From a virus (Duplodnaviria; Heunggongvirae; Uroviricota; Caudoviricetes), in IMG/VR virus record IMGVR_UViG_2609459834_000014: a stretch of 12,415 nt of DNA; one strand, written 5' to 3'. Below are positions 1,009-12,415 of the stretch, one piece after another (the stretch's first letter is position 1; each line of letters opens with the position of its first letter). The notes below the pieces were generated by a model. That model worked only from the letters and a program-made list of their open reading frames with translations. It was not told the DNA's origin and ran no database searches. Position numbers and translations under genes: made by a program.

Positions 1009-1081
1009 GTCCTCTTAGTTAAATGGATATAACGAGCCCCTCCTAAGGGCTAATTGCAGGTTCGATTCCTGCAGGGGACAC
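1009..1081 (+). tRNA. argW: tRNA-Arg (anticodon CCT)
   Basis: Cloverleaf read by hand. Acceptor GTCCTCT (1009-1015) pairs with AGGGGAC (1073-1079); anticodon stem AGCCC/GGGCT flanks loop CTCCTAA with U33-CCT-A37; T-arm GCAGG-TTCGATT-CCTGC; discriminator A at 1080. The sequence then reads CTTT, so a full CCA is not encoded at this junction. Confidence 0.9.
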
Positions 1082-1255
1082 TTTAAAGACCTTTCTCTAC
1101 ATTTCACTTCATTACATAACCACTTAAAAAAACAGTAAGTTATCACCGAATCGGCCTGATTTTCATTTCAGTTAATTTCATGACATTACAACCTCGTGAT
1201 GGTATAAGTGATGGTATTCCCCAGTTCGATATGCAGATACCATCAATTTACCAAA

Positions 1256-2542
1256 ATGAGTACAGATATGGCCATTAATGTGCTTTCCCCCAAACAGATA
1301 GAAAACGCCAAGCCGAAGACCAATGATTACAAACTTACCGATGGAGGGAGTTTGTATCTACTGGTACGAAAGACTGGTGGAAAATACTGGCGTATGAATT
1401 ATCGTTTTGATGGAAAACAAGTGACATTGGCATTAGGGGTCTACCCAGATGTCTCACTTGCAACAGCGCGGAAACGGCGTGATGAAGCCAGGCAACTACT
1501 AGCCGATGGTCGTGATCCTCGCGAAGCAAAGAAACCCAAAAAGGAAGACCCAATTTCCCCCACGTTCGAGAGTGTTGCCAGAGAGTGGCATAGTGGAACG
1601 ATGGGGCATCCTGAGTGGAAAGAGATCACCCGTAAAAAAATTCTCCGAGAAATGGAAAACCACCTCTTTCCTGCCATCGGTTCAAAGCCTATCGATACGC
1701 TCAAAACCCGTGACTTGATGCCGATGCTGGTTGAGATGACTGAGAAAGGAATTGGTGCCACAACGAGCCGGGTAAAAACCACTATGACGAGCATCTTCCG
1801 TTATGCCGTGCAACGTGGAATTGTCGATTACAACCCTGCCCACGATCTAAAAGGTGCAATTACGACCCCCAAAGTACGACATCGCCCCGCACTACCTCTC
1901 GAACGTTTACCTGAACTGTTAGCGAAAACGAGAAGTTACACGGGAAGACCATTGACTCGCCTAGCAGTTCTATTTTCCCTGCACACTTTTGTGCGATCCA
2001 GCGAACTACGACATGCCAGATGGGAGGAGATCGACATTGAAAATGGGCTATGGACGATACCAGGACAACGTGAAGAGATCGCAGGGGTTAAATTCTCAGA
2101 GCGGGGTGCAAAGATGGGGGCTGCTCATTATGTCCCGCTATCTAGTCAGGCTATCGGGGTACTGGAGGATATAAGGAAAATCAGTGGTGAATATCTGCTG
2201 GTTTTCCCCGGTGACAGCAACCCATATAAACCGATGAGCGAAAACACAGTTAATAAAGCACTGCGAACGATGGGTTACGACACTCAAAGTGATGTTTGCT
2301 TGCATGGGTTCAGGGCGATGGCCTGCTCTGCACTGACCGAATCAGGACTCTGGTCACGCGATGCAGTTGAACGGCAGATGAGTCACCAAGAAAGAAACGA
2401 AGTGCGGGCAGCATATGTGCATCTTGCGCAGCACATGCAGGAACGCCGCAGAATGATGCAATGGTGGTCTAATTATCTGGAACTAAATAAGGACGAATTT
2501 CATGCTCCTTATGACTTATCAGGTATTAACATTATCAATTAA
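1256..2542 (+). CDS. int: Tyrosine site-specific recombinase (P4-type integrase)
   Basis: The N-terminus (LSPKQIENAKPKTNDYKLTDGGSLYLLVRKTGGKYWRMNYRFDGKQ...LALGVYPDVSLATARKRRDEARQLLADG) matches the conserved P4-integrase arm-binding domain. The C-terminal catalytic region carries R...HGFR...Y-type residues (LHGFRAMACS, RAAYVH). Start is ambiguous: GTG 1208, ATG 1256 or ATG 1268, none with a strong Shine-Dalgarno. Stop at 2540-2542. Confidence 0.88.
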   Translation: MSTDMAINVLSPKQIENAKPKTNDYKLTDGGSLYLLVRKTGGKYWRMNYRFDGKQVTLALGVYPDVSLATARKRRDEARQLLADGRDPREAKKPKKEDPISPTFESVAREWHSGTMGHPEWKEITRKKILREMENHLFPAIGSKPIDTLKTRDLMPMLVEMTEKGIGATTSRVKTTMTSIFRYAVQRGIVDYNPAHDLKGAITTPKVRHRPALPLERLPELLAKTRSYTGRPLTRLAVLFSLHTFVRSSELRHARWEEIDIENGLWTIPGQREEIAGVKFSERGAKMGAAHYVPLSSQAIGVLEDIRKISGEYLLVFPGDSNPYKPMSENTVNKALRTMGYDTQSDVCLHGFRAMACSALTESGLWSRDAVERQMSHQERNEVRAAYVHLAQHMQERRRMMQWWSNYLELNKDEFHAPYDLSGINIIN

Positions 2543-2572
2543 ATTTTCTTATAATTTAAAACAGAGGTCATA

Positions 2573-3454
2573 ATGCAGCATTCAAAAGAGAATGAAACTA
2601 TATTCTTAGGAAATCTATGGATTGACAAAAAAATACCACCATTAGAATATTGTTCATTTGAACGCGCTTCAAGACTATTAGAATGCGAGATTGATGATTT
2701 ATTACACCTATACGAAATAGGCGCCTTTAATATCGCATTCAAGGCGGATGGACTTGCAGTTAGATTTAATGTTAATTTCCTCTATAAAAATCAGAAAATG
2801 GAAATTGACTTAATTCATCCCGTATTAACTAATCAATCACTAGAGATGGAATTTTCAACAATATGGTATGACCTTAAAGATGACTCCTTTGAACATTTTG
2901 AAAATGGGCTTCAAATTATAGGATTTGCCTGTGGTATTTGGTACGCCGATGATATGATAAGTGACATAAAAAATGGATTAGCTATAGATCCAGATTATGA
3001 ATTCAGGCTTAAACCGGTAAAAATACGAGATAATGTTTTGATGGCAACGGCCTCATATGAAGGAAATAAGGTCATTGATATTCCATTTGAAGATCTTCTT
3101 ATCATGCGAAGAGATTTAGAGTTAATATGGAAATCAGTAAAAACTGGAATTCCTATGCCAAGTTTACTTACGAAAAGAATTTCATCTGAACCTAAAATCC
3201 CCAAGCGATTAAATAACACTGCTGAGCATCATGCAAAAAATAGGGAGGGGTTATTAAATGCAGCCATATATATATTAGCAAAATACCCAAGCGAATGTCG
3301 TGGTGAAAGAAAAGAGATAAGTCCTGAAAAGTGGACTAACGCCATAATTAAACATTTAGGAGAGCTACCTCCAATATTTATCACTAATGAACAAGAAATC
3401 TTAAGAAAATTACGATTAGCGGTTAATCATGCGGGATTGAAACAAAAGGGGTAG
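2573..3454 (+). CDS. Hypothetical protein, 293 aa, AT-rich orphan cargo gene of unknown function
   Basis: ATG at 2573 preceded by AGAGGT (2562-2567) at 5-nt spacing. G+C is clearly low (about one third by eye) against the flanking integrase and alpA. I recognise no catalytic motif or family. Confidence 0.7.
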   Translation: MQHSKENETIFLGNLWIDKKIPPLEYCSFERASRLLECEIDDLLHLYEIGAFNIAFKADGLAVRFNVNFLYKNQKMEIDLIHPVLTNQSLEMEFSTIWYDLKDDSFEHFENGLQIIGFACGIWYADDMISDIKNGLAIDPDYEFRLKPVKIRDNVLMATASYEGNKVIDIPFEDLLIMRRDLELIWKSVKTGIPMPSLLTKRISSEPKIPKRLNNTAEHHAKNREGLLNAAIYILAKYPSECRGERKEISPEKWTNAIIKHLGELPPIFITNEQEILRKLRLAVNHAGLKQKG

Positions 3455-3491
3455 ACTGAAACAATCTACAGGTAGAGTTGATTACACTACC

Positions 3492-3548
3492 TTCACAGCA
3501 TTTTGATATCCCCATAGTATCTGCCGTGTTCATTACATAACACGGCAG
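3492..3548 (+). promoter_or_regulatory. Putative alpA promoter with a 10-bp perfect inverted repeat over the predicted start site and 5' UTR
   Basis: TTCACA (3492-3497), 17 bp, TAGTAT (3515-3520). Perfect inverted repeat CTGCCGTGTT (3521-3530) / AACACGGCAG (3539-3548) with 8-bp spacer CATTACAT, ending 8 bp before the alpA ATG. Confidence 0.35.
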
Positions 3549-3556
3549 GTAATTTC

Positions 3557-3772
3557 ATGACATTAAAAACTTATCCTATCACTGGACATGCCCGCCCACG
3601 AGCTACTGCTGACTTTTTGCAAATAAGTACGGTTACTCTCTGGCGCTGGGAAAAGAACAATCCTGAATTTCCCAAATCTATACGCATTTCAAAACGGGTA
3701 TCTGTTTACGATGCACAAGAAATTAGGCAGTGGGTTAAAGCTCAATCAGCAGGATTGGAGGAAGTAGTGTAA
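3557..3772 (+). CDS. alpA: AlpA-family phage transcriptional regulator (helix-turn-helix; excision/activation control)
   Basis: 71-aa ORF. The segment FLQISTVTLWRWEKNNPEFPKSIRISKRVSVYDAQEIRQWV matches the AlpA/Vis-type HTH pattern (x-T-hy-Y/W-x-W ... FPK ... V-x-W ... EI-x-W). Position right after the integrase module is typical. Confidence 0.8.
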   Translation: MTLKTYPITGHARPRATADFLQISTVTLWRWEKNNPEFPKSIRISKRVSVYDAQEIRQWVKAQSAGLEEVV

Positions 3773-3821
3773 TGACAATATTAACAAAGCTGGGGAGAAA
3801 AAAGCCTCCCCAACGTATTAA

Positions 3822-4016
3822 TCAATTCTTTGGTTCTAAACCTCGGCTTTGTAACTCTTTGCGTAGAATGCGCTTGATCCAAGCCGCTAGCGATTCATCG
3901 CCATCCTGCTGTTGTGCTTGTTCCATCAGTTCACGCAGTTCAGGGTCAAGTCGGAACTGGAATGGCGGATTCCCACGTCTTTCATTTTTGTGTGTTGACA
4001 CGTCAATTACACCCAT
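3822..4016 (-). CDS. Possible ribbon-helix-helix (CopG/Arc-like) small DNA-binding protein, 64 aa
   Basis: The translation FQFRLDPELRELMEQAQQQDGDESLAAWIKRILRKEL has the strand-helix-helix layout of RHH repressors. It is divergent from the downstream operon and next to a perfect palindrome. Weak points: no clear Shine-Dalgarno before its ATG (4014-4016 on the - strand), and it overlaps a low-complexity + strand ORF. Confidence 0.4.
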   Translation of the reverse strand: MGVIDVSTHKNERRGNPPFQFRLDPELRELMEQAQQQDGDESLAAWIKRILRKELQSRGLEPKN

Positions 4017-4049
4017 TGTAATGTATTTATGTGTAATGACACATTACAC
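3995..4049. promoter_or_regulatory. Strong rightward sigma70 promoter with an adjacent perfect palindromic operator
   Basis: TTGACA (3995-4000), 16 bp, TGTAAT (4017-4022) on the + strand. It is followed by the perfect inverted repeat GTGTAATG-ACA-CATTACAC (4031-4049); further GTAATG/CATTAC-like half-sites lie at 4003-4023. Located between the RHH-like ORF and the Icd-like-to-primase operon. Confidence 0.45.
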
Positions 4050-4132
4050 ACAGAAAAACAAAATAGCAACGCCCCGGAGTGTTTGCAGCACCACCGAGGC
4101 GTCTGACCAGCACGTTATATGAGGTAACGAAG

Positions 4133-4309
4133 ATGGCTAAACAGAAGTGTACCTGGTTATTTGCGGCGATCAACCGCAGTCAACGTAATGCCCGTCCGGT
4201 GATGTTAAGGATCACCGCAGATAACGAGCGATCAGCGCGGCGCAGACTTGCCCCGGACTATGTACTGAGCTTTGCCGGGCGCATTCCCTGCGGAGGTGAA
4301 CATGCGTAA
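4133..4309 (+). CDS. Small Icd-like (phage cell-division-inhibitor family) protein, 58 aa
   Basis: ATG at 4133 preceded by GAGG (4121-4124). The translation MAKQKCTWLFAAINRSQRNARPVMLRITADNERSARRRLAPDYVLSFAGRIPCGGEHA resembles, from memory, the short Icd-like proteins found in P4-like satellites. The ORF track extends it to an upstream GTG at 4079. Confidence 0.5.
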   Translation: MAKQKCTWLFAAINRSQRNARPVMLRITADNERSARRRLAPDYVLSFAGRIPCGGEHA

Positions 4310-4661
4310 TTATCCGCATCCCGGCGAACGCTGGCAGCATGAACGTGGCTGGACGGTCACGATTATCCGATTAATAGAAGCCTCGCCCTCTGTGGCGCTG
4401 GTTAATCCTGAATTCAGCTGTGAAGTGCTGATACGTCATGACAGCGACAACCAGCTTTCTTCCTGCCCTCTGGCATGGTTTGAACAGCGATATACGCGCC
4501 TGTTTGATGTACCGCTCTTTAAGCCTGCACCAGCTCCTGCAGGCGGTAGTGGTTCCGGCCCGCTGACACTGCATCCGTCTGTGCTATTTATCCGCTGGCG
4601 GGAGCGTAGCATATGGCGTTCTGCTGAGCCTGATGACGGTCACTATTCAAAGTTTCTCTGA
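4302..4661 (+). CDS. Hypothetical satellite protein, 119 aa
   Basis: ATG at 4302 preceded by GGAGG (4292-4296); overlaps the stop of the Icd-like ORF by 8 nt, suggesting translational coupling. High G+C like the island core. Contains a Gly/Pro/Ala-rich linker (PAPAPAGGSGSGP). Confidence 0.6.
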   Translation: MRNYPHPGERWQHERGWTVTIIRLIEASPSVALVNPEFSCEVLIRHDSDNQLSSCPLAWFEQRYTRLFDVPLFKPAPAPAGGSGSGPLTLHPSVLFIRWRERSIWRSAEPDDGHYSKFL

Positions 4662-4692
4662 CAAAACACCGCTGAAAACGGAGTAATCCACA

Positions 4693-4977
4693 ATGAATAT
4701 TTCAAACGGGCACAACGGTGCTCAGGGCCAGACTTTGCCTGAAAAACACAATACCGGTGCTTTTGCCTATGGGTTGTCAGAGGACGGTTTCGGAAAGCTG
4801 ACCCGCGCAAGAAATGCCTGCGACATGCTCCAGCTTCTCTTTTCTGAATACCCGTCTCAGGCCGGAGCACTGGACGCAGGCTGTGCGCCTGGTGTCGCCG
4901 CGCTGATGGAGTACCTGCGGGCAGATTTGACGGATATTGCGCACAGCTGTGCACTGATTGAAGGAGGTGCCAGATGA
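4693..4977 (+). CDS. Hypothetical satellite protein, 94 aa
   Basis: ATG at 4693 with GGAG at 4679-4682; same orientation and composition as its neighbours. Its size and position upstream of the primase recall P4 epsilon, but I see no sequence support for that. Confidence 0.55.
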   Translation: MNISNGHNGAQGQTLPEKHNTGAFAYGLSEDGFGKLTRARNACDMLQLLFSEYPSQAGALDAGCAPGVAALMEYLRADLTDIAHSCALIEGGAR

Positions 4978-5357
4978 ACCAGCCGCAGGTTTCCATTTTC
5001 CCGGCAGAAATGACCACCGCGCTTTACCGGCGGGCTATTGCTTCAGCATGGCGGCAGAAAATGCTGAACGAAACTGGCAATGATCAGTATGGTCCGCACA
5101 GCCTGACGGTGGAGCGTATTGAAATGGCCATTGCGCTGCATATCGAGTGCGCACTGATTAACGAGTACGGCGAAGCACAGGGCGCCGCTGCCGCGCTGGC
5201 ACTGCTAACTGACATGCTGGAGCCGTCACTGCTGACCGCGCCGCCGGTACTGACCGCGCGCGGTTGTGAAGTAATGGCGGAGATGTACCGCACGCTTCCG
5301 GCGGCCTTTGATGACTTCTGCAGTACCGGTGTGACGTTGTATCAGGGGGAAGTATGA
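4974..5357 (+). CDS. Hypothetical satellite protein, 127 aa
   Basis: ATG at 4974 preceded by GGAGGTG (4963-4969); 4-nt ATGA overlap with the preceding ORF, and its stop overlaps the primase start. Confidence 0.6.
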   Translation: MNQPQVSIFPAEMTTALYRRAIASAWRQKMLNETGNDQYGPHSLTVERIEMAIALHIECALINEYGEAQGAAAALALLTDMLEPSLLTAPPVLTARGCEVMAEMYRTLPAAFDDFCSTGVTLYQGEV

Positions 5358-8026
5358 CAATACAGACGGTTACGCAGATTTCAGCCGCCGCACGGGGGAA
5401 ATGGCCCGTTATTCTCCAGATGCTGCGTATTGATGTACCTGAAAACGGCAGGCACGGTCCCTGCCCGAAATGTGGGGGCAAGGATCGTTTTCGCCTTGAT
5501 GACCTTGACGGGCGCGGGACGTGGATCTGCAGCCAGTGTGGCAATGGTGACGGTCTGGATCTGGTTAAGCTCGTAACCGGTTACAGCGTCAGAAAGGCTG
5601 CGCAGGAGGTGGCGCAGGTGCTTAATGTGCCGGATGTGCAGGAACTGCCTGTTAAGCCTGCCAGACAAAAAGCCCCTAAACGCGACATGGGGCTTACCGT
5701 GGCGGCGCTGATGAAAGAGAGCCACACGGGAGAAAGCGCCTATCTGACAGGAAAAGGGTTCGCCGGATACCCGGCCTCTCTGACCGGAAGCGTGCAGCAT
5801 ATCAGCGGTAAGGATTTTCCTGCCGGTTCCCTGCTGTTACCACTCACGACCAACACCGGAGCCGTGACCGGTGCACAGCTTATCGCCCCGACGGGTGAAA
5901 AAAGCATACTGCCCGGCAGCACGATGAAAGGCGCGTTTGTGTCGCTCAGCCCGTTACCGTCTGAACCACCGGTACAGGTGGTGATTACCGAAGGTTACGC
6001 TACGGCGCTGACGGTAAGTCAGCTCACTGCCGGATGCGTAGTGGCTGCCATATCTGCGGGCAACCTGCCCAATGTGGCGCAGTCGCTGCGGGCACGCTGG
6101 CCTGAGGTAAAAATTATCATCGCCGGTGATAACGATTTTCAGGACGGAGGTGAGAATCCCGGCAGAGCCTTTGCTGAACGGGCGGCAAAAGCTGTTGGCG
6201 GCTGGATGACGCTGCCACCAGGAGAGATTAAGGCTGACTGGAATGACTTTCATCGGGAGCACGGTATTACCCGTGCCCGTGAAGCCTTTCGCAACGGTCT
6301 GGTACTGTGCGGGGAAGGCCGCACGCAACTGCCGCACGGGTTCCGTCTTACCCAGGAATATCTCTGGTATGAAAAGCAGGTACAGCGCAACGGTGAGACG
6401 GAGATCCAGAACGTCAAAATATGCAGCCCGCTGCGCGTGACGGCAATCACCTGCGATGCCGATGGCGGTAACTTCGGACGACTGCTGGAATGGGAAGATA
6501 CGTGGGGTGAGTGTCGCCGCTGGGCGATGCCGATGGAAATGCTGAGCGGCAGTGGTGAGGAACTGCGCCGGGTACTGCTGGTTAACGGGCTGTCTTATAT
6601 CAGCACCACCGGTGAGGCACGCGCACGCCTGATGGAATATATCTCACTGTGTAAACCGGAACGCCGCGTGACCTGCGTCAGTCGTACTGGCTGGCATGGT
6701 CAGGTTTACGTCCTGCAGGATGAGGTCAGCGGTGAAGGTGCAGAGGGTGTCATTCTCCAGACCACTTCCGTGCAGGGGCGTGATTTCCGCGTGTCGGGCA
6801 CAACAGAGGAATGGCGGGAGCATGTATCCCGCTACTGTACCGGCAACTCCCGCGTGGCATTTGCTGTCAGCCTGGCCTTTGCTGCACCACTGTTACGGCT
6901 GGTTGGTATGGACGGCGGCGGCTACCACCTCAAAGGGGAATCGACAGACGGTAAGACCACCACCATGAAAGCGGCAACCTCCGTCTGCGGCGGGCCTGAC
7001 TACTGGCAGACATGGCGGGCCACCGGCAACGCGCTGGAGGGATGCGCCAGCCGCCGCAACGATGCCGCCATGATGCTTGATGAGATCCGGGAAGTTGACG
7101 GACGCGAGGCAGGCAATATCGCCTACATGCTGGCAAACGGTCAGGGCAAGGGCCGTGCCGGTACGGACGGTGAGCTGCGTACCCGTAAGCAGTGGCGCCT
7201 GTTGTTCTTTTCAACTGGCGAGTTGTCTCTGACCGAACATGCGGCAAAGGCCGGTGAGCGTACTTTTGCCGGGATGGAAGTCAGGATGATCCAGATCCCC
7301 AGCGATTCCGGGAAGTTTGGCGTTTTTGAGGAGCTGCACGGCTTCGACAGCGGCAAGGCTCTGGCAGAGCATCTTGAATGGGCCACGTCCTGCTACTACG
7401 GTTCGCCGTTCCGGGAGTGGCTGAAAGCACTGACCGCTGATCTTAACGGACTAACGGCACAGGCAAAATCGCTGATGAAGGAATATGCTGCCGCCCTGAC
7501 TCCGAAAGATGCAGGCAATCAGGTGGGCCGGGCTGTGAACCGCTTTGCTCTGGTGGCGATGGCAGGTGAACTGGCAACCCGTCTGGGTATCACCGGCTGG
7601 CCTGAGGGTGAAGCACTGCGGGCAACCCGCGTCTGCCTGAACGCATGGCTGAAAGATCGCGGGCACACCGCCAATCAGGAAGATATCGCCGCACTGGAGC
7701 AGGTTCGCAGTTTCTTTACCGCGAATCAGTACAGCCGCTTTGCAGACTGGTATGACGAGCGCAACCGCCCCGGCAATATGGTGGGCTGGCGCAGGGTGGA
7801 GAAAGGCAGTACCGCGCAGGGCACGGAAGCTGTCACTACGTTCTATGTCATGCCGTCCGGCTGGAAAGAAATCTGCAGGGGATTTGACCCGCGCAAGGTG
7901 GCGCGTCTGTGCGCAGATCGTGGATACCTGCTGCCCTCCACTGATGGCAAACTCCAGACAACCATTCGCCCGCCAGAGATGAATCCCCGCAGGCTCTATG
8001 TCTTCAACAGCGAGGTGCCGGGTTAA
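5354..8026 (+). CDS. Primase-helicase (P4 alpha-like replication protein: zinc ribbon, TOPRIM primase, Walker-A NTPase)
   Basis: 890-aa ORF, ATG at 5354 after a GGGGGAAG tract. N-terminal Cys4 ribbon (CPKCGG...CSQCG). TOPRIM signature with a conserved Glu (VVITEGYATAL) and acidic DxD cluster (IIAGDNDFQD). Walker A GESTDGKTT further downstream. Followed immediately by an iteron array. Confidence 0.9.
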   Translation: MTIQTVTQISAAARGKWPVILQMLRIDVPENGRHGPCPKCGGKDRFRLDDLDGRGTWICSQCGNGDGLDLVKLVTGYSVRKAAQEVAQVLNVPDVQELPVKPARQKAPKRDMGLTVAALMKESHTGESAYLTGKGFAGYPASLTGSVQHISGKDFPAGSLLLPLTTNTGAVTGAQLIAPTGEKSILPGSTMKGAFVSLSPLPSEPPVQVVITEGYATALTVSQLTAGCVVAAISAGNLPNVAQSLRARWPEVKIIIAGDNDFQDGGENPGRAFAERAAKAVGGWMTLPPGEIKADWNDFHREHGITRAREAFRNGLVLCGEGRTQLPHGFRLTQEYLWYEKQVQRNGETEIQNVKICSPLRVTAITCDADGGNFGRLLEWEDTWGECRRWAMPMEMLSGSGEELRRVLLVNGLSYISTTGEARARLMEYISLCKPERRVTCVSRTGWHGQVYVLQDEVSGEGAEGVILQTTSVQGRDFRVSGTTEEWREHVSRYCTGNSRVAFAVSLAFAAPLLRLVGMDGGGYHLKGESTDGKTTTMKAATSVCGGPDYWQTWRATGNALEGCASRRNDAAMMLDEIREVDGREAGNIAYMLANGQGKGRAGTDGELRTRKQWRLLFFSTGELSLTEHAAKAGERTFAGMEVRMIQIPSDSGKFGVFEELHGFDSGKALAEHLEWATSCYYGSPFREWLKALTADLNGLTAQAKSLMKEYAAALTPKDAGNQVGRAVNRFALVAMAGELATRLGITGWPEGEALRATRVCLNAWLKDRGHTANQEDIAALEQVRSFFTANQYSRFADWYDERNRPGNMVGWRRVEKGSTAQGTEAVTTFYVMPSGWKEICRGFDPRKVARLCADRGYLLPSTDGKLQTTIRPPEMNPRRLYVFNSEVPG

Positions 8027-8053
8027 GGCTTTGCGTGAGTCTTATTTATTAAG

Positions 8054-8248
8054 GGTAACAGGTGAAACAGGTGGAACAACCGTATTTTACAGGGCTGAAC
8101 CTGTTCCACCTTCTGAAATAGTGAGGTGGAACAGATGTAACGCCAGCCAATCCGCTGTTCCACCTTGTTACCCGCGATGTTCCACCGGTGCAGTGTATAT
8201 AAATTCCTTATAAAACAAAGCTGTAACACATGTTTCACCTGTTCCACC
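8054..8248. repeat. Iteron cluster, probable satellite origin of replication
   Basis: Eight copies of the 9-mer TGTT(C/T)CACC or its complement GGTG(G/A)AACA: 8061-8069, 8070-8078, 8102-8110, 8125-8133, 8156-8164, 8178-8186, 8231-8239, 8240-8248. Related GGTAACA/TGTTACC copies at 8054-8060 and 8166-8172, and an AT-rich tract at 8192-8220. The motif is close to the TGTTCACC iterons I recall for the P4 origin. Confidence 0.7.
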
Positions 8249-8426
8249 GCATCAGGGACATAAAGCAGACTGAAACAGAGGGCATTTTTATCTGGCTGGC
8301 TTTCATAGCCACGTCTGAATAACCGCAAGCGCCCGTTGTGCCAGCCACCACACACTGAACACCGATAGTGTGCTTGTGTCAGCCACGACACAATTGACGT
8401 AACGAACCAACCCGACAGGAGAAGTC

Positions 8427-9170
8427 ATGAACAACACCGCAGTAAATAACAACCTTTCCACTTTTCCGGCTGTAACGCAGCGGGCACTGGAAACCATGAA
8501 CACAGCCAGAAACGCATGGCTTGAAGCACGTCGTCAGCAGAAAGCGGCAGCGGATAATATTGCGACAATCCGCCAGCGTCGCGCTGAAATGGAAGCCACG
8601 ACGAACACACTGAATGAGGAGTGGCGCACGCTGTTTCGTGAAAGTCAGGGCGTGGTCTCAAAGGAAATGAAAAAACTGCGCACGGAAATTGCGCTGGGAC
8701 GAGAAACGCTTGAGGATTTTGATGAGCTGCTGGCGGCTCAGGAAAGCGAAAATGCACTTTTGCCGCAGAAAGCTGCAGAATTAGCCGGAAAGTATATCCA
8801 CGCGCATAACATTCTTGTGGATATTCGCGCAAAACAAATCTGGGAGGATTTTATGCAGTCGCATGGAAAAGCGCTTATTCAGACGCTGAGCCTGCTTAAA
8901 TCCACAATGGGCCGGGAAGCCAGTGCCGTTGTGGGTGTGGTGAATTCAGTTAATGACCCGGACACAGTGCTGAAAGACTTTATTCATAAACATATCACCA
9001 GACCGGCTCTGGCTAACGATGCGATGCCTGAGCAGGACCCGGTGTTTAAACTGGCGGGAGTTGCCCCGGATTATGCGGCGCGTCTGGATTTCAGTAATCA
9101 ACTCTCTCCGGCAGCTATGCATAAAATTAAGGTTCGTCAGGAACTTGCTGAGAAGGAGAAAGCAGTATGA
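8427..9170 (+). CDS. Hypothetical satellite protein, 247 aa, helical and charge-rich
   Basis: ATG at 8427 with AGGAG (8417-8421) at 5-nt spacing. Composition rich in A/E/K/R/L suggests long helices. First gene of a three-gene co-directional unit that ends with the Ogr/Delta-like gene. Confidence 0.7.
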   Translation: MNNTAVNNNLSTFPAVTQRALETMNTARNAWLEARRQQKAAADNIATIRQRRAEMEATTNTLNEEWRTLFRESQGVVSKEMKKLRTEIALGRETLEDFDELLAAQESENALLPQKAAELAGKYIHAHNILVDIRAKQIWEDFMQSHGKALIQTLSLLKSTMGREASAVVGVVNSVNDPDTVLKDFIHKHITRPALANDAMPEQDPVFKLAGVAPDYAARLDFSNQLSPAAMHKIKVRQELAEKEKAV

Positions 9171-9718
9171 CGGCCCGAGGCACGCCTGACCAGGCACTTA
9201 CCAGTTTTCGGAATGCCCGTATTCTGTGGGCCGGACATAATGAGAGCCGAAAAGCCGTTGAACAACAGATAACATCTCTCCTCGCTGCCACAGAAAAACC
9301 AGCAGATTATGCCCGACAGCTCGAATTACTGCGGGAACGTCTGGATGTGCTGAAATGGCAAATTAACTGTGCTGCGCGCGAATGCATTTACTCGCAGCAT
9401 TTACTGATGGAGGCCTGCACAGAAGCCGCTCTCAGCAATTTTATGCAGGCGAATGGGGCAGCCCTGACATCTGCACTGGCTCCATTCCTGAAGGGGCGCG
9501 GAGGGGTTGACGTTGCGTCCCGTATATTACGCAGTGCTCTGGTTCGCCAGCTGGCAATAACACCGCCTGAAATTGCCGGGGATTATCGTGAGATCCTGGA
9601 TGAATCCGGTTTGATGCCTGACCCCGGGATGATTCGTGATTGCCAGGGTTCTTACACCCCGGCACAACATCTGCGTTTTCAGCAACGCCTGAATGACATT
9701 AACGATATACAGGAGTGA
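9167..9718 (+). CDS. Hypothetical satellite protein, 183 aa
   Basis: ATG at 9167 overlaps the upstream stop (ATGA); AGGAG at 9154-9158. Same composition as its neighbours. Confidence 0.65.
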   Translation: MTARGTPDQALTSFRNARILWAGHNESRKAVEQQITSLLAATEKPADYARQLELLRERLDVLKWQINCAARECIYSQHLLMEACTEAALSNFMQANGAALTSALAPFLKGRGGVDVASRILRSALVRQLAITPPEIAGDYREILDESGLMPDPGMIRDCQGSYTPAQHLRFQQRLNDINDIQE

Positions 9719-9723
9719 TATTA

Positions 9724-9996
9724 ATGGCACTTAAATGTCCGGAATGCGGTACAGTTGCACACGCCAGAACAGCAGCCTATGAAGCTCCGTCAGTTAAACG
9801 CTCGTGGTATCAGTGCCAGAATCTGGAATGTTCCTGCACATTTACGGCACTGGAGAGTGTGGATAAGATAATCATGAAACCCCGGCGCAATGAACAGCTA
9901 TCAGACAAAGCACAATCCCCGGAAAAACAACAGCAAACACTTAATCGCTATGGCTCCGCGTCAAAACTGTCAAGCCGTCAGCAGATTCCTGTCTGA
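9724..9996 (+). CDS. Ogr/Delta-family zinc-finger late-gene transcriptional activator
   Basis: ATG at 9724 with AGGAG (9711-9715) at 8-nt spacing. The N-terminus has the exact Ogr/Delta spacing Cys5-x2-Cys8-x22-Cys31-x4-Cys36 (MALKCPECG...YQCQNLEC) with a conserved HART-like tract (AHART). The GTG at 9715 in the ORF track lies inside the ribosome-binding site and is not the start. Confidence 0.8.
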   Translation: MALKCPECGTVAHARTAAYEAPSVKRSWYQCQNLECSCTFTALESVDKIIMKPRRNEQLSDKAQSPEKQQQTLNRYGSASKLSSRQQIPV

Positions 9997-10018
9997 TTAG
10001 AAAGAACGCCCACGTAAT

Positions 10019-10043
10019 CCCGGTCCAGTACCGGGATTTTTTA
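10019..10043 (+). terminator. Rho-independent terminator after the Ogr/Delta-like gene
   Basis: Hairpin CCCGG (10019-10023), loop TCCAGTA, CCGGG (10031-10035), then ATTTTTTAT (10036-10044), 23 bp after the stop codon. Confidence 0.6.
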
Positions 10044-10060
10044 TCCCCTTTTCCTGGCTG

Positions 10061-10182
10061 GCATGAGAGCGAATGAGTGCATGTCTATGGCGCATGAAAA
10101 CGCATGAGTCTTATGCACCATTTTTGACGAGAAAACCCTTGTTTGGTGGCTTCTGAGACGATTTATGAGGTGCATGAAAACC
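10061..10182. repeat. Cluster of short direct repeats, GCATGA(G/A) family, in non-coding DNA
   Basis: GCATGAG at 10061-10067 and 10102-10108; AATGAGTGCATG at 10072-10083; GCATGAAAAC at 10092-10101 and 10172-10181. Function unknown; lies between the terminator and the AT-rich cargo gene. Confidence 0.3.
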
Positions 10183-10423
10183 AGTCTGTTAAGCGAAGCG
10201 GGCAGGCGTGCGGGGCTGCGCACGGAGGCGGAATAAATAGTAATGCTATGGATGCTGGGCACACATAGATAAGAGGTTTACAAATAGTATGCTTGTTGTC
10301 GTAACTGATAGGGGTCTATCAAAATCAGAAATCAAAAACAGTATTTCGTGTAATTTATAGAATTTTCACAGAAAACATATACAATCGTTTCTGATACAGG
10401 AGTCTGATTAAGTTGGGATTATT

Positions 10424-12415
10424 ATGGCCATTCAAAAAAAACAAACAAAAAATTCTGAAAGAAGTATTAAAAGCCAGTTAGAAAAACTTACGGCTGAAAA
10501 AGCCATTTCCGAATATATTTGGAATGCTTTTGATGCTGAAGCCACAAATATTAATATTACAGTTATCCCAAATGGTTTAAGTGGGATATCTTCAATAGAA
10601 ATTATTGATGATGGAACTGGCATCGATTTTAATGAAGTCGATGAAACTTTCGGGCAGTTTTTAGATTCCAAGAAGAAAGCAAAACGAACGCCTGTCACAA
10701 GAGGACATAAAGGTAAGGGGCGGTTTTCATTCTGTAAATTCGCTGATAAAGCCGAATGGACTAGCTGGCGTAATGGAGAGAAATTTACGCTAACTATAGT
10801 TTCATCACATCTAAATGAATATGAGCATTCAGATTTATCCATGTGCTCTCATAAAAATTCTGGAACTAAGGTGGTCTTTAATCCTGTAACAATTACTGAA
10901 GATTATTTTAATTCAATAGTTATACCCTATTTGCAGAACGATATATCTTGGCTGTTGGTGGCCAAACCAAAATTAAAATTAAAAATAAACGGTCAATCTA
11001 TTAGCCCAATAGGATATGCTTCAACTTCAAATAATATTGAATTTGGAGAGGTCGATTTTAATTCGAAAACAGTTATATGGTCTAGTAAACCTGTAGTAGA
11101 AAAATCATATATATATTATTTAAATAATCAAGGTGATATTGTTTACAAAGAGTTTTCTGAGATGAACAAAAAAGGATTTGATTGTTCATCCTATGTCACA
11201 TCAAGTTGGTTTGATGATTTTTCTGAATCAAACGACTTGTTTAATGAATCGAAAAACAGTGTTGACTCAGATATTTTTAAATACATTAGTCTACATGTTA
11301 AAGGTAATTTAAGGGAAGAGTATAGAAAATATAAAAATAATGCGGCAGATCAACTCATTCAAAACTATTTAAATGAGGGTGTGTTTCCAGAATATAAAGG
11401 TGAGAATAGAATGCTCAATGAATTTAAAAGGAATCAACTCATTGAAACTATAAAGATAATTTATGAGGCCGAACCTCAAATTTTCTCCACACTAAACAAG
11501 AAACAAAAAAAAATCTTAATTAAACTATTAGATAGAATTGTTGAAACCAATAATTTATCCAGTCTCTTTGACATTTTTGAAGGTATAGTTTCCCTATCCG
11601 AAGATGAGGTTGATAAACTTTCATCTGTAATAAAAAGAAGTTCACTTTCTAATATTACGAGGACTTTGTCATTTATTAATGATAGACTGGATGTTATTGA
11701 TTATTTTAAAAAAATACTATATGAGAAAAAGAAAGAATCATATGAAGTAAAGCACATTCAAAAGAGCATAGAAAATAATTTATGGCTTTTTGGAGAGCAA
11801 TACACTCTAGTTGCATCAGAAGATGATAAGTTTGATAAAGCTCTTAGAAAGTATCTGGAGAAGACTAAAGGTTTTAACGAAGCACATTATAATAAGTATA
11901 GTGTACAGCATCCAGATAAAAATAAAGAAATGGATATATTTGCAGCACAAAAAATAAAGCGTTACACTGAAAATAATGAAGAATATTTTCATTGCATTGT
12001 GATTGAATTAAAGAAACCAAGTATAAAACTCGGTGATGAAGAACTCGCACAAATAAAGTTATATAAAAATATAATATCTGCGACTGATGAATTTAAAGAC
12101 GATAATACAAAATGGGATTTTATTTTAGTGGGAAATGATATGTCTAATAGCAATATCACTGCTGCAAATTTATCATCAGATCTAGAAACGAATAAAATAC
12201 ATGGTGAGTTTGGCTTGGTTCAAAAAACAACAAATATGAAAATTTACGTCAAAACGTGGAAGCAAATTTTAAATGAGTATGATCTTAGATATAACGACCT
12301 GATCGATAAGCTTAAGTTGAAAGAGTTAGAAATTGCAGAAGATATGGGGCCTGATGAACTCACGGCAAAAATTTTAGAAAAAACGGCAAGACTTCCGACT
12401 TCGATACAGGCTTAG
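10424..12415 (+). CDS. GHKL (Bergerat-fold) ATPase-domain protein with a C-terminal PD-(D/E)xK-like signature; candidate anti-phage or accessory effector of unknown family
   Basis: 663-aa ORF, ATG at 10424 and stop at 12413-12415, which is the last codon of the window. About 30% G+C by eye. All three GHKL motifs are in order: N-box E30-x3-N34-x2-D37-A38 (EYIWNAFDA, from nt 10511), G1 box D62-D-G-T-G66 (nt 10607-10621), G2 box G94-HK-G97-K-G99 (nt 10703-10720). C-terminal D504 ... E528-L-K530 (EMDIF-x-IVIELKKP, nt 11933-12013) fits a PD-(D/E)xK core. Family and function are not recognised. Confidence 0.75.
   Translation: MAIQKKQTKNSERSIKSQLEKLTAEKAISEYIWNAFDAEATNINITVIPNGLSGISSIEIIDDGTGIDFNEVDETFGQFLDSKKKAKRTPVTRGHKGKGRFSFCKFADKAEWTSWRNGEKFTLTIVSSHLNEYEHSDLSMCSHKNSGTKVVFNPVTITEDYFNSIVIPYLQNDISWLLVAKPKLKLKINGQSISPIGYASTSNNIEFGEVDFNSKTVIWSSKPVVEKSYIYYLNNQGDIVYKEFSEMNKKGFDCSSYVTSSWFDDFSESNDLFNESKNSVDSDIFKYISLHVKGNLREEYRKYKNNAADQLIQNYLNEGVFPEYKGENRMLNEFKRNQLIETIKIIYEAEPQIFSTLNKKQKKILIKLLDRIVETNNLSSLFDIFEGIVSLSEDEVDKLSSVIKRSSLSNITRTLSFINDRLDVIDYFKKILYEKKKESYEVKHIQKSIENNLWLFGEQYTLVASEDDKFDKALRKYLEKTKGFNEAHYNKYSVQHPDKNKEMDIFAAQKIKRYTENNEEYFHCIVIELKKPSIKLGDEELAQIKLYKNIISATDEFKDDNTKWDFILVGNDMSNSNITAANLSSDLETNKIHGEFGLVQKTTNMKIYVKTWKQILNEYDLRYNDLIDKLKLKELEIAEDMGPDELTAKILEKTARLPTSIQA

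Follow-up and report, generated by a model that had tools for sequence, protein, structure and literature searches.

Which element has integrated behind the arginine tRNA gene argW in the viral record IMGVR_UViG_2609459834_000014, and how far does the biology of bacteriophage P4 extend to it? P4-type satellites are small elements that hijack P2-like phages. P4-like satellites rank with the commonest mobile elements of Escherichia coli and hold a major store of anti-phage genes; what is said of their biology has been extrapolated from P4 alone, and their organisation is called 'extremely conserved' in the literature. We have analysed the whole 12,415-nucleotide stretch of this record (the window, hereafter) and conclude that it very probably carries an integrated, helper-dependent phage satellite of the P4 family, lying after argW. 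To an annotator this would be one more P4-like element at a tRNA gene and nothing out of the ordinary; biologically, it is a common variant that has yet to be characterised.

Judged by its sequence, the lineage to which the element belongs is a mosaic of modules, in which the late genes and cos site of a P4-like satellite are joined, co-directionally, to a replicon whose helicase resembles those of the SaPI Rep and SCCmec Cch proteins. A frequent lineage that keeps the capsid-hijack module with another helicase, origin position, immunity device and gene order shows that the family is wider than the P4 model, and it amounts to a natural experiment on the dispensability of epsilon, the CI RNA and the P4 helicase.

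The late module and the class of the element

The most diagnostic genes of the window, two members of the Psu family that were absent from the first-pass annotation of this DNA, lie side by side on the plus strand. The first (8427-9170) encodes a 247-amino-acid homologue of Sid, the capsid size-determination scaffold; it matches phrog_6165 (E 8.7e-93), the family that also holds P4 Sid (E 6e-116), its best sequence match in the PDB is to Sid (7jw1_E, E 5.9e-10, against 8e-5 for Psu), and it is 24% identical to P4 Sid over 226 residues. The second (9167-9718) encodes a full-length Psu homologue of 183 amino acids (PF07455, E 1e-44; phrog_6366, E 4e-70; 30% identity to P4 Psu). They are followed, on the same strand, by a gene for a 90-amino-acid delta protein (9724-9996; PF04606, E 1e-15) with a single Ogr-type zinc finger, whose cysteine spacing, read from the translation, is C-X2-C-X22-C-X4-C and which can be aligned with either of the two halves of the tandem P4 delta. 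An intrinsic terminator (10016-10038, plus strand), comprising a 9-bp stem and then TTTTT, closes the operon. In six IMG/VR contigs of the same co-directional lineage (L013, L016, L019, L025, L028 and L029) sid is directly followed by delta, with no psu; Psu-less P4-like variants, a parallel to these sid-delta loci, have been reported (PMC10085698).

Upstream of sid lies a sequence of the Psid late-promoter type (8337-8392, plus strand), with two TGT-N12-ACA dyads (8337-8354 and 8375-8392), which, from what is known of the late promoters of P2 and P4, we take to be Ogr/delta boxes at about -55 and -18. A distance of 38 bp separates them, and the centre of the proximal box lies 43.5 nt 5' of the sid ATG; in P4 the Psid dyads (9494-9511 and 9531-9548) are 37 bp apart, with the proximal centre likewise 43.5 nt before the ATG. 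The pair is present in 27 of the 27 P4-like loci examined, of both architectures, with the TGT and ACA arms invariant and the N12 spacers variable, the pattern expected of protein-binding sites. By its box spacing, then, the element would appear to share the delta/Ogr-dependent late promoter of P4-like satellites.

Beyond the terminator is a cos-like region (10076-10223, plus strand), collinear with the left side of P4 cos, with a proposed 19-nt cohesive end, GGCGTGCGGGGCTGCGCAC, at 10205-10223, cleavage here being a prediction. Repeated GCATG motifs, TGCATGAAAACC, AAGCGGGC and then a 19-nt G-rich sequence are common to the window and to the left side of P4 cos, the 19-nt sequence of P2 and P4 being GGCGAGGCGGGGAAAGCAC. 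In Peduoviridae the segment from gene A/dinI to the portal gene, which has GGCGTG(G)CGGGGATACGAG as the corresponding sequence, shares about 70% identity with the flank. An exact-pattern scan of IMG/VR recovered the cos-like site in 26 contigs, all 26 of which have late-gene homology and 25 of which have delta, the remaining locus being only 1.6 kb long.

These features place the element among recognised satellites. P4-like elements are defined by seven core components in SatelliteFinder (PMC8628076, PMC10085698), of which the window holds the tyrosine integrase, Psu, Sid, delta and AlpA, with epsilon going undetected; the catalogues allow up to two components to be missing (Type C) (PMC8628076, PMC10085698). 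A P2-family cos-like site and a variable hotspot adjoining it are likewise shared with P4-like elements. The gene order departs from the conserved one (int, psu-delta-sid, divergent alpA-epsilon-alpha) and instead runs int, alpA, alpha, sid, psu, delta on one strand. Among the orders reported for P4-like elements, 77% follow P4, 20% have psu and delta swapped and the rest are rarer variants, and the order in the window is not included (PMC8628076).

No open reading frame (ORF) of the window matches capsid, tail, terminase or lysis families in Pfam or PHROGs, in agreement with the first-pass annotation, which had seen no structural or lysis genes; a megablast search against 50,697 phage records gave no match, the likeness to P4 being at the protein level only. 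Both results speak against a prophage remnant such as CPS-53 (KpLE1), which occupies argW in K-12. That remnant shares the insertion site and the 21-bp core region of the element, but the integrase of the window is only 30% identical to IntS and in K-12 it is yfdG and yfdH, not satellite genes, that come after intS; the content of the locus refutes this explanation, to which we give almost no credence. The same annotation had preferred a helper-dependent P4-type satellite at argW to a CPS-53-like remnant, and Sid, Psu, the Psid-type promoter and the P2-family cos-like site, added to the distance from IntS, bear that preference out.

Replicon, switch and module exchange

The replicon of the element departs from that of P4. 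The gene at 5354-8026 (plus strand) encodes an 890-amino-acid primase-helicase (Zn_Ribbon_Prim, Toprim_3 and DUF927 in Pfam), in which a Zn-ribbon/Toprim primase of the P4 alpha type is fused to a DUF927 helicase. Alignment with P4 alpha is confined to residues 5-316 of the protein, at 38% identity, and the two proteins fall in different families (phrog_1139 and phrog_2249, respectively); the C-terminal 250 amino acids show no similarity to the origin-binding region of P4 alpha. The helicase part matches 8tch ('Pathogenicity island protein', E 4.5e-15), 5dgk ('Active helicase', E 2.9e-13) and the NCBIfam family of SCCmec Cch1 (NF047345). Immediately 3' of the gene is a candidate replication origin (8061-8248, without assigned strand), recognised by pattern count, in which eight GGTGRAACA iterons surround an AT-rich stretch. 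All eight exact copies, in both orientations, lie within 8061-8248 and there are none elsewhere in the window; with one mismatch allowed there are 14, against 5.3 expected, a number reached by none of 200 shuffles. Every relative with a DUF927-type alpha and upstream sequence has seven to nine copies, whereas loci with a P4-type alpha are without these iterons and have at most two related GGTGAACA octamers, so the iterons co-vary with the type of alpha.

An iteron origin immediately 3' of the rep gene is the layout of SaPIs, the pathogenicity islands of staphylococci, and the helicase domain is homologous to those of SaPI Rep and SCCmec Cch (the DUF927 proteins of 8tch and 5dgk); it differs from both in being fused to a P4-alpha-type primase and in belonging to an enterobacterial P4-like element, not to a staphylococcal island. 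Some primase-replicases of Gram-negative phage-inducible chromosomal islands (PICIs) also carry DUF927 (PMC10111431). The element might, then, be a Gram-negative-type PICI, in which AlpA would switch on a programme of replication and packaging redirection on a helper cue. Its int, alpA and primase-helicase, its DUF927 helicase with the origin 3' of the gene and its predicted dependence on a helper all resemble the EcCICFT073 type of PICI, and P4-like elements score as 'Type C PICI' according to the authors of SatelliteFinder (PMC10085698). PICIs of that type, however, have capsid-morphogenesis or packaging-redirection genes and no control by Ogr/delta boxes, whereas no ORF of the window has a capsid-morphogenesis, small-terminase or packaging-redirection match in Pfam or PHROGs, and Sid, Psu, delta, the Psid promoter and the P2-type cos are hallmarks of P4-like elements. 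Gene content contradicts the PICI explanation, which we regard as very improbable. The label 'P4-like / PICI-like' that had been given to the locus accordingly divides: its first half stands, and its second holds for the replication module (DUF927 and the position of the origin) and fails for the packaging and capsid-morphogenesis genes.

Compared directly with P4 (NC_001609), the satellite of the window has an integrase of the P4 type, with paired arm repeats and the 3' end of a tRNA as its target; an early operon syntenic with the P4 left operon (alpA, an icd-like gene, two small ORFs, DUF5375, which is P4 orf106, and the primase-helicase); octamer-like iterons (GGTGAACAG in P4, GGTGRAACA here); a two-box Psid with near-identical distances; sid, psu and delta; a 19-nt G-rich cos adjoining a variable slot; and a genome of about 11.6 kb. 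The differences are as extensive. The late genes of the P4 prophage (psu-delta-sid) are placed between int and alpA and are transcribed divergently from the early operon, whereas here the late operon is downstream of alpha on the same strand, a contrast that had been drawn earlier and that the P4 record confirms. The late order is sid-psu-delta rather than sid-delta-psu; delta has a single finger where P4 has a tandem pair; the helicase is of the DUF927 and not the P4 kind, with an unrelated C-terminal domain; the right half of the cohesive end differs from that of P4; the cargo slot lies between cos and attR instead of between cos and int; and the C4/CI RNA, isrK and a detectable epsilon, all of which P4 has, are lacking, while an Arc-like gene is present.

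A second comparison suggests how such a mosaic could have come about. Six satellites of classical architecture with the sid-psu-delta order, the 'psu/delta swap' of PMC8628076 (L021, L040, L015, L017, L024 and L027), have the same cos (GCGGGCAGGCGKGCGGGGCTG), the same late order and two-box layout and a delta that is 86-92% identical to that of the window; in L021 and L040 sid and psu are 83% and 90% identical, respectively. They differ from the window in their divergent early and late operons, their P4-type alpha (35-38% identity, in the N-terminus only), their C4 and isrK RNAs and their other iterons. Since the late modules of L021 and L040 are 83-90% identical to that of the window and have the same cos, and yet accompany a P4-type alpha and C4 RNA, the late/cos block has been exchanged between two backbones.

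The immunity device also appears to have been replaced. Neither C4 (CI) RNA nor isrK was found in the window with Rfam, even in a permissive search (E<=10) of 3440-4700; both are present in all five classical relatives and in none of six co-directional ones, with C4 scoring 75-86 bits in P4 and the classical relatives. Matches to the Rfam families traJ_5 and RybB were below threshold and were dismissed. In the corresponding position, divergent from the early operon, is a gene on the minus strand (3822-4016) for a 64-amino-acid Arc-like, or ribbon-helix-helix (RHH), protein (phrog_228, Arc-like repressor, E 8.9e-6; named YlcI/YnfO by PGAP), whose AlphaFold model has a strand-helix-helix topology at low confidence (pLDDT 63). 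A minus-strand ORF of 57-64 amino acids, of three unrelated sequence types, lies between alpA and icd in all co-directional relatives with full upstream sequence except L028 and L029. Between the divergent genes (4017-4048, no strand assigned) are repeats that look like operators, among them the perfect palindrome GTGTAATG-ACA-CATTACAC.

The heptamer of these repeats, TGTAATG/CATTACA, occurs seven times in the window (1110, 1184, 3531, 3768, 4017, 4032 and 4042), a four-fold excess over the 1.75 expected that none of 200 shuffles reached. Six of the seven copies are in intergenic control regions and the seventh spans the alpA stop codon, the motif being confined to the att-int interval, a hairpin loop 5' of alpA, the alpA stop and the divergent promoter region; perhaps a single regulator binds it and so couples excision to the switch of the early operon. 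The hairpin in question (3518-3551, plus strand; RNA fold -23.5 kcal/mol, z -5.3), an inverted repeat with a perfect 13-bp stem, ends 5 nt 5' of the alpA start codon and overlaps its likely Shine-Dalgarno sequence, and could be the terminator of the integrase gene and the 293-amino-acid ORF that follows it, a translational gate for alpA or a DNA operator. AlpA itself (3557-3772, plus strand), a helix-turn-helix (HTH) regulator (PF05930, E 1.6e-7, 31.6 bits against a cut-off of 21; phrog_66, excisionase and transcriptional regulator), is weakly similar to P4 orf88 and, standing at the position of P4 Vis/orf88, is probably the excision factor.

From these parts the following cycle can be proposed. 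In the resting state the divergent Arc-like protein would repress the early operon through the TGTAATG palindromes, in place of the CI/C4 RNA immunity of P4; this is the weakest step of the mechanism. When a P2-like helper (Peduoviridae) infects or is induced, its Ogr-type activator would bind the TGT-N12-ACA boxes and turn on sid, psu and delta, and the delta of the satellite would in return activate the late genes of the helper. AlpA and the integrase would excise the element, the primase-helicase would replicate it from the adjacent iterons, Sid would push the helper capsid protein into small shells that Psu would decorate, and the helper terminase would cut cos and package a genome of P4 size. 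For helper activation, capsid remodelling and the cutting of cos, we infer these steps from homology and conserved geometry.

A bolder proposal, in which our belief falls a little short of our doubt, is that the element is the prototype of a distinct sub-family, present in about 6% of complete E. coli genomes, that joins the P4 hijack block (Psid, sid, psu, delta and cos) head-to-tail to a primase-Rep replicon in the style of SaPIs and PICIs, and in which an RHH protein switch of several specificity types stands in for the CI/C4 RNA immunity as well as for the epsilon anti-repressor. If such a chimeric sub-family exists, entire functional modules pass between families of satellites, and the way in which this lineage detects and uses its helper must differ from that of P4.

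Boundaries, cargo and mobility

The integration target is the gene for tRNA-Arg(CCT), argW (1009-1081, plus strand; ARAGORN, and 63.4 bits for the Rfam tRNA family), at whose 3' end lies the 21-bp attL core TTCGATTCCTGCAGGGGACAC (1061-1081, plus strand), a sequence for which no match is expected by chance and which recurs in the relatives. The exact copy that constitutes attR in strain MARGA_4 (L005, NZ_CM169475) is at 20602, just before dsdC and 11,541 bp from attL. In NZ_CM136170 (L001), the only genome to span the entire window (99.5% identity), an attR-like repeat at 27949-27968 lacks one G of a GGGG run; it lies 11,888 bp from attL and would fall 535 nt past the window end. These distances of 11,541-11,888 bp compare with 11,624 bp for the P4 genome and fit a capsid of P4 size (about 10-11.6 kb). 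The window takes in attL and the element up to about 0.5 kb before attR, the whole element being about 11.5-11.9 kb. The first-pass annotation had proposed looking further downstream for an attR repeat of the tRNA 3' end and for contiguous structural genes; in these closest genomes the repeat is found, and what follows it is another integrase element or dsdC, with no structural genes.

The integrase gene (1268-2542, plus strand) encodes a P4-type tyrosine recombinase of 424 amino acids (Arm-DNA-bind_3, Phage_int_M and Phage_integrase in Pfam) that is 52% identical to P4 Int over 409 residues (E 4e-157). Putative arm-type sites for it (1196-1246, plus strand), suggested by a reading of the sequence, are two copies of GTGATGGTAT 12 bp apart and an inverted copy at 1238-1246; a pair of TGATGGTA with the same 12-bp spacing is found 55-70 nt to the left of attR in both L005 and L001. 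Paired 12-bp arm repeats are annotated in P4, and here paired GTGATGGTAT repeats lie on either side of the core. By its sequence, then, a P4-type integrase has recombined the 21-bp core with the 3' end of argW.

Two observations concern the consequences of integration at this site. E. coli tRNA genes normally encode their CCA, and argW no longer does once the element is in place: K-12 has GGGGACACCA, whereas attL has GGGGACAC joined to TTTAAAG, the original CA staying at attR (compare the window at 1078-1084, L042 at 1079-1086 and L005 at 20619-20627). As the CCA is not encoded, the tRNA would need 3' trimming and the CCA-adding enzyme. The second concerns L001, in which a further integrative element (27970-37462, starting about 0.55 kb past the window end) stands in tandem at the same att site, with a P4-type integrase 46% identical to that of the window, HTH and MerR regulators, a rolling-circle Rep, a large SIR2-family protein and a serine recombinase. 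It ends at an exact third copy of TTCGATTCCTGCAGGGGACAC at 37442, 21,381 bp from attL; because the outer att copies are exact and the middle one is defective, the 21.4-kb composite might be excised more easily than either of the two by itself, and it exceeds a P4-size capsid and would fit one of P2 size.

At the other end, all but one of the 56 E. coli genomes with the element (55) cease to resemble the window at 10218-10221, and a variable hotspot therefore begins at the right edge of cos. The 26 IMG/VR contigs likewise diverge completely just past the cos-like site, and a variable hotspot adjoining cos has been described in P4-like elements (PMC9122126). The last 2 kb of the window (10424-12415, plus strand), which had not been recognised earlier as low-GC cargo rather than core, are occupied by a single gene with a GC content of 0.27-0.35, whose stop codon ends on the last base of the window. 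Its 663-amino-acid product, which belongs to PHROG 6203, fuses a GHKL ATPase (HATPase_c_3, E 2.8e-20) to a PD-(D/E)xK nuclease (HSDR_N_2). Among 25 homologues, at identities down to 32% and ranging from Enterobacterales to Oscillospiraceae, residues E30, N34, D37, G64, G94, G97, G99, D504, E528 and K530 are invariant and D62 and G66 nearly so. Only one of the 56 genomes with the element has this cargo, and PADLOC matched no defence system in it or in the small ORFs. The gene is a swappable accessory, most likely with an anti-phage role, and is a candidate single-gene defence nuclease. Surveys of cargo between psu and int (the method of PMC9122126) miss or mis-delimit slots such as that between cos and attR, and a defence hotspot there, if the chimeric sub-family is real, would escape them.

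Against a functional, helper-dependent satellite a number of results have to be set. Excision, replication, helper activation and packaging are each deduced here. The attR is known from relatives, beyond the window's own end, and the 1-nt deletion in the attR core of NZ_CM136170, the sole genome with this cargo, could impair excision of that copy. No homologue of epsilon (Ash, the helper derepression protein) was detected: the 94-amino-acid ORF nearest its position gives a BLASTP E of 0.033 with P4 epsilon and falls in PHROG 14861, as against 10016. The Arc-like protein is a candidate immunity repressor by virtue of a weak PHROG match, its position and the nearby palindromes, and its model has no Foldseek match in the PDB. 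Finally, no phage in IMG/VR or among GenBank phages has an identical cohesive end; exact-pattern scans of IMG/VR for the cohesive end returned satellites, chance GC-rich matches or nothing, and the GenBank phages that match best have about 70% identity in the cos flank and a different right half. Either the helper is unsampled or the cos of a satellite need not match that of its helper. As a separate observation, the left half of the cohesive end (GGCGTGCGGGG) matches phages of Wadgaonvirus and Elveevirus (L003, 4119-4140; L004, 3118-3140), and the right half (CTGCGCAC) is found in satellites only and in no phage, in IMG/VR or among GenBank phages.

Several of these same points would suit the main rival, a decayed or domesticated satellite, that is, an immobile island which neither excises nor is packaged and which the host keeps for its cargo as a defence island. 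The attR beside this cargo in NZ_CM136170 is without one core G, epsilon is not detected, no cognate helper cos is found and copies disrupted by insertion sequences (IS) exist. The core ORFs are, however, intact and full length relative to their families in 12 of 12 cases, the attR of MARGA_4 is exact, and the promoter boxes, iterons and cos are conserved; moreover, the same core stands behind at least four integrases and with many cargos, which implies recent mobility and recombination. We consider decay unlikely, and retain the integrated, helper-dependent P4-type satellite as the better account of the locus.

Distribution and neighbouring features

Of 5,426 complete E. coli genomes, 325 have the junction that runs from alpha through the iterons and Psid to sid, which makes the lineage a common one. 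The particular combination of argW and integrase in the window accounts for 56 of the 325 (the genomes that cover at least 80% of the window); across the 25 of these 56 that are listed the core is at least 98.9% identical and the cargo differs. The integrases, at least four in number, behind which the co-directional backbone is found are 39-100% identical. The commonest class of SatelliteFinder elements deficient in two components lacks 'epsilon and alpha' (PMC10085698), and the lineage has probably been counted already in satellite catalogues, undescribed, as P4-like without epsilon and alpha.

Some copies are damaged. In E. coli OW1E2 (L043, 9291-10453) the same argW element is cut short by an IS3 that lies a little way inside the 3' end of the primase-helicase gene, and the whole late module and cos are gone; a partial match to the alpha gene only (H71), considered as a possible new context, proved to be an IS3-truncated copy and was rejected. 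Other copies of the element carry insertions of IS1, IS2 or IS100.

The features listed in the first-pass annotation, namely yfdC, tRNA-Arg(CCT), the integrase, AlpA, the primase-helicase, the iterons and the Ogr/Delta protein, were all recovered at or near where it had placed them, by domain searches, ARAGORN, Rfam and pattern count. yfdC occupies positions 1-933 (Form_Nir_trans, E 7.6e-49) and has the same name in the annotation of the best-matching genome. After the tRNA gene every gene is on the plus strand except one small one. The integrase gene is followed by a low-GC accessory ORF of 293 amino acids (2573-3454, plus strand; GC 0.31-0.35), which has no match in Pfam, PHROGs, NCBIfam or PADLOC and no similarity to P4 cII. 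It accompanies this integrase in L006, L018, L025 and L026, where it is 92-100% conserved, and since other genes replace it behind other integrases its position looks like a second accessory slot.

The early operon opens, on the plus strand, with a gene for an Icd-like small protein (4133-4309; NF033153, E 5.5e-24) that is 54% identical to the C-terminal part of the P4 'cI ORF'. It continues with an ORF of 119 amino acids (4302-4661; phrog_30862), weakly similar at its N-terminus to P4 orf151 (E 8e-4), with the 94-amino-acid ORF near the position of P4 epsilon (4693-4977; phrog_14861), and with the gene for the DUF5375 protein (4974-5357; PF17345, E 1.3e-13), which is 40% identical to its homologue P4 orf106, both belonging to phrog 5991.

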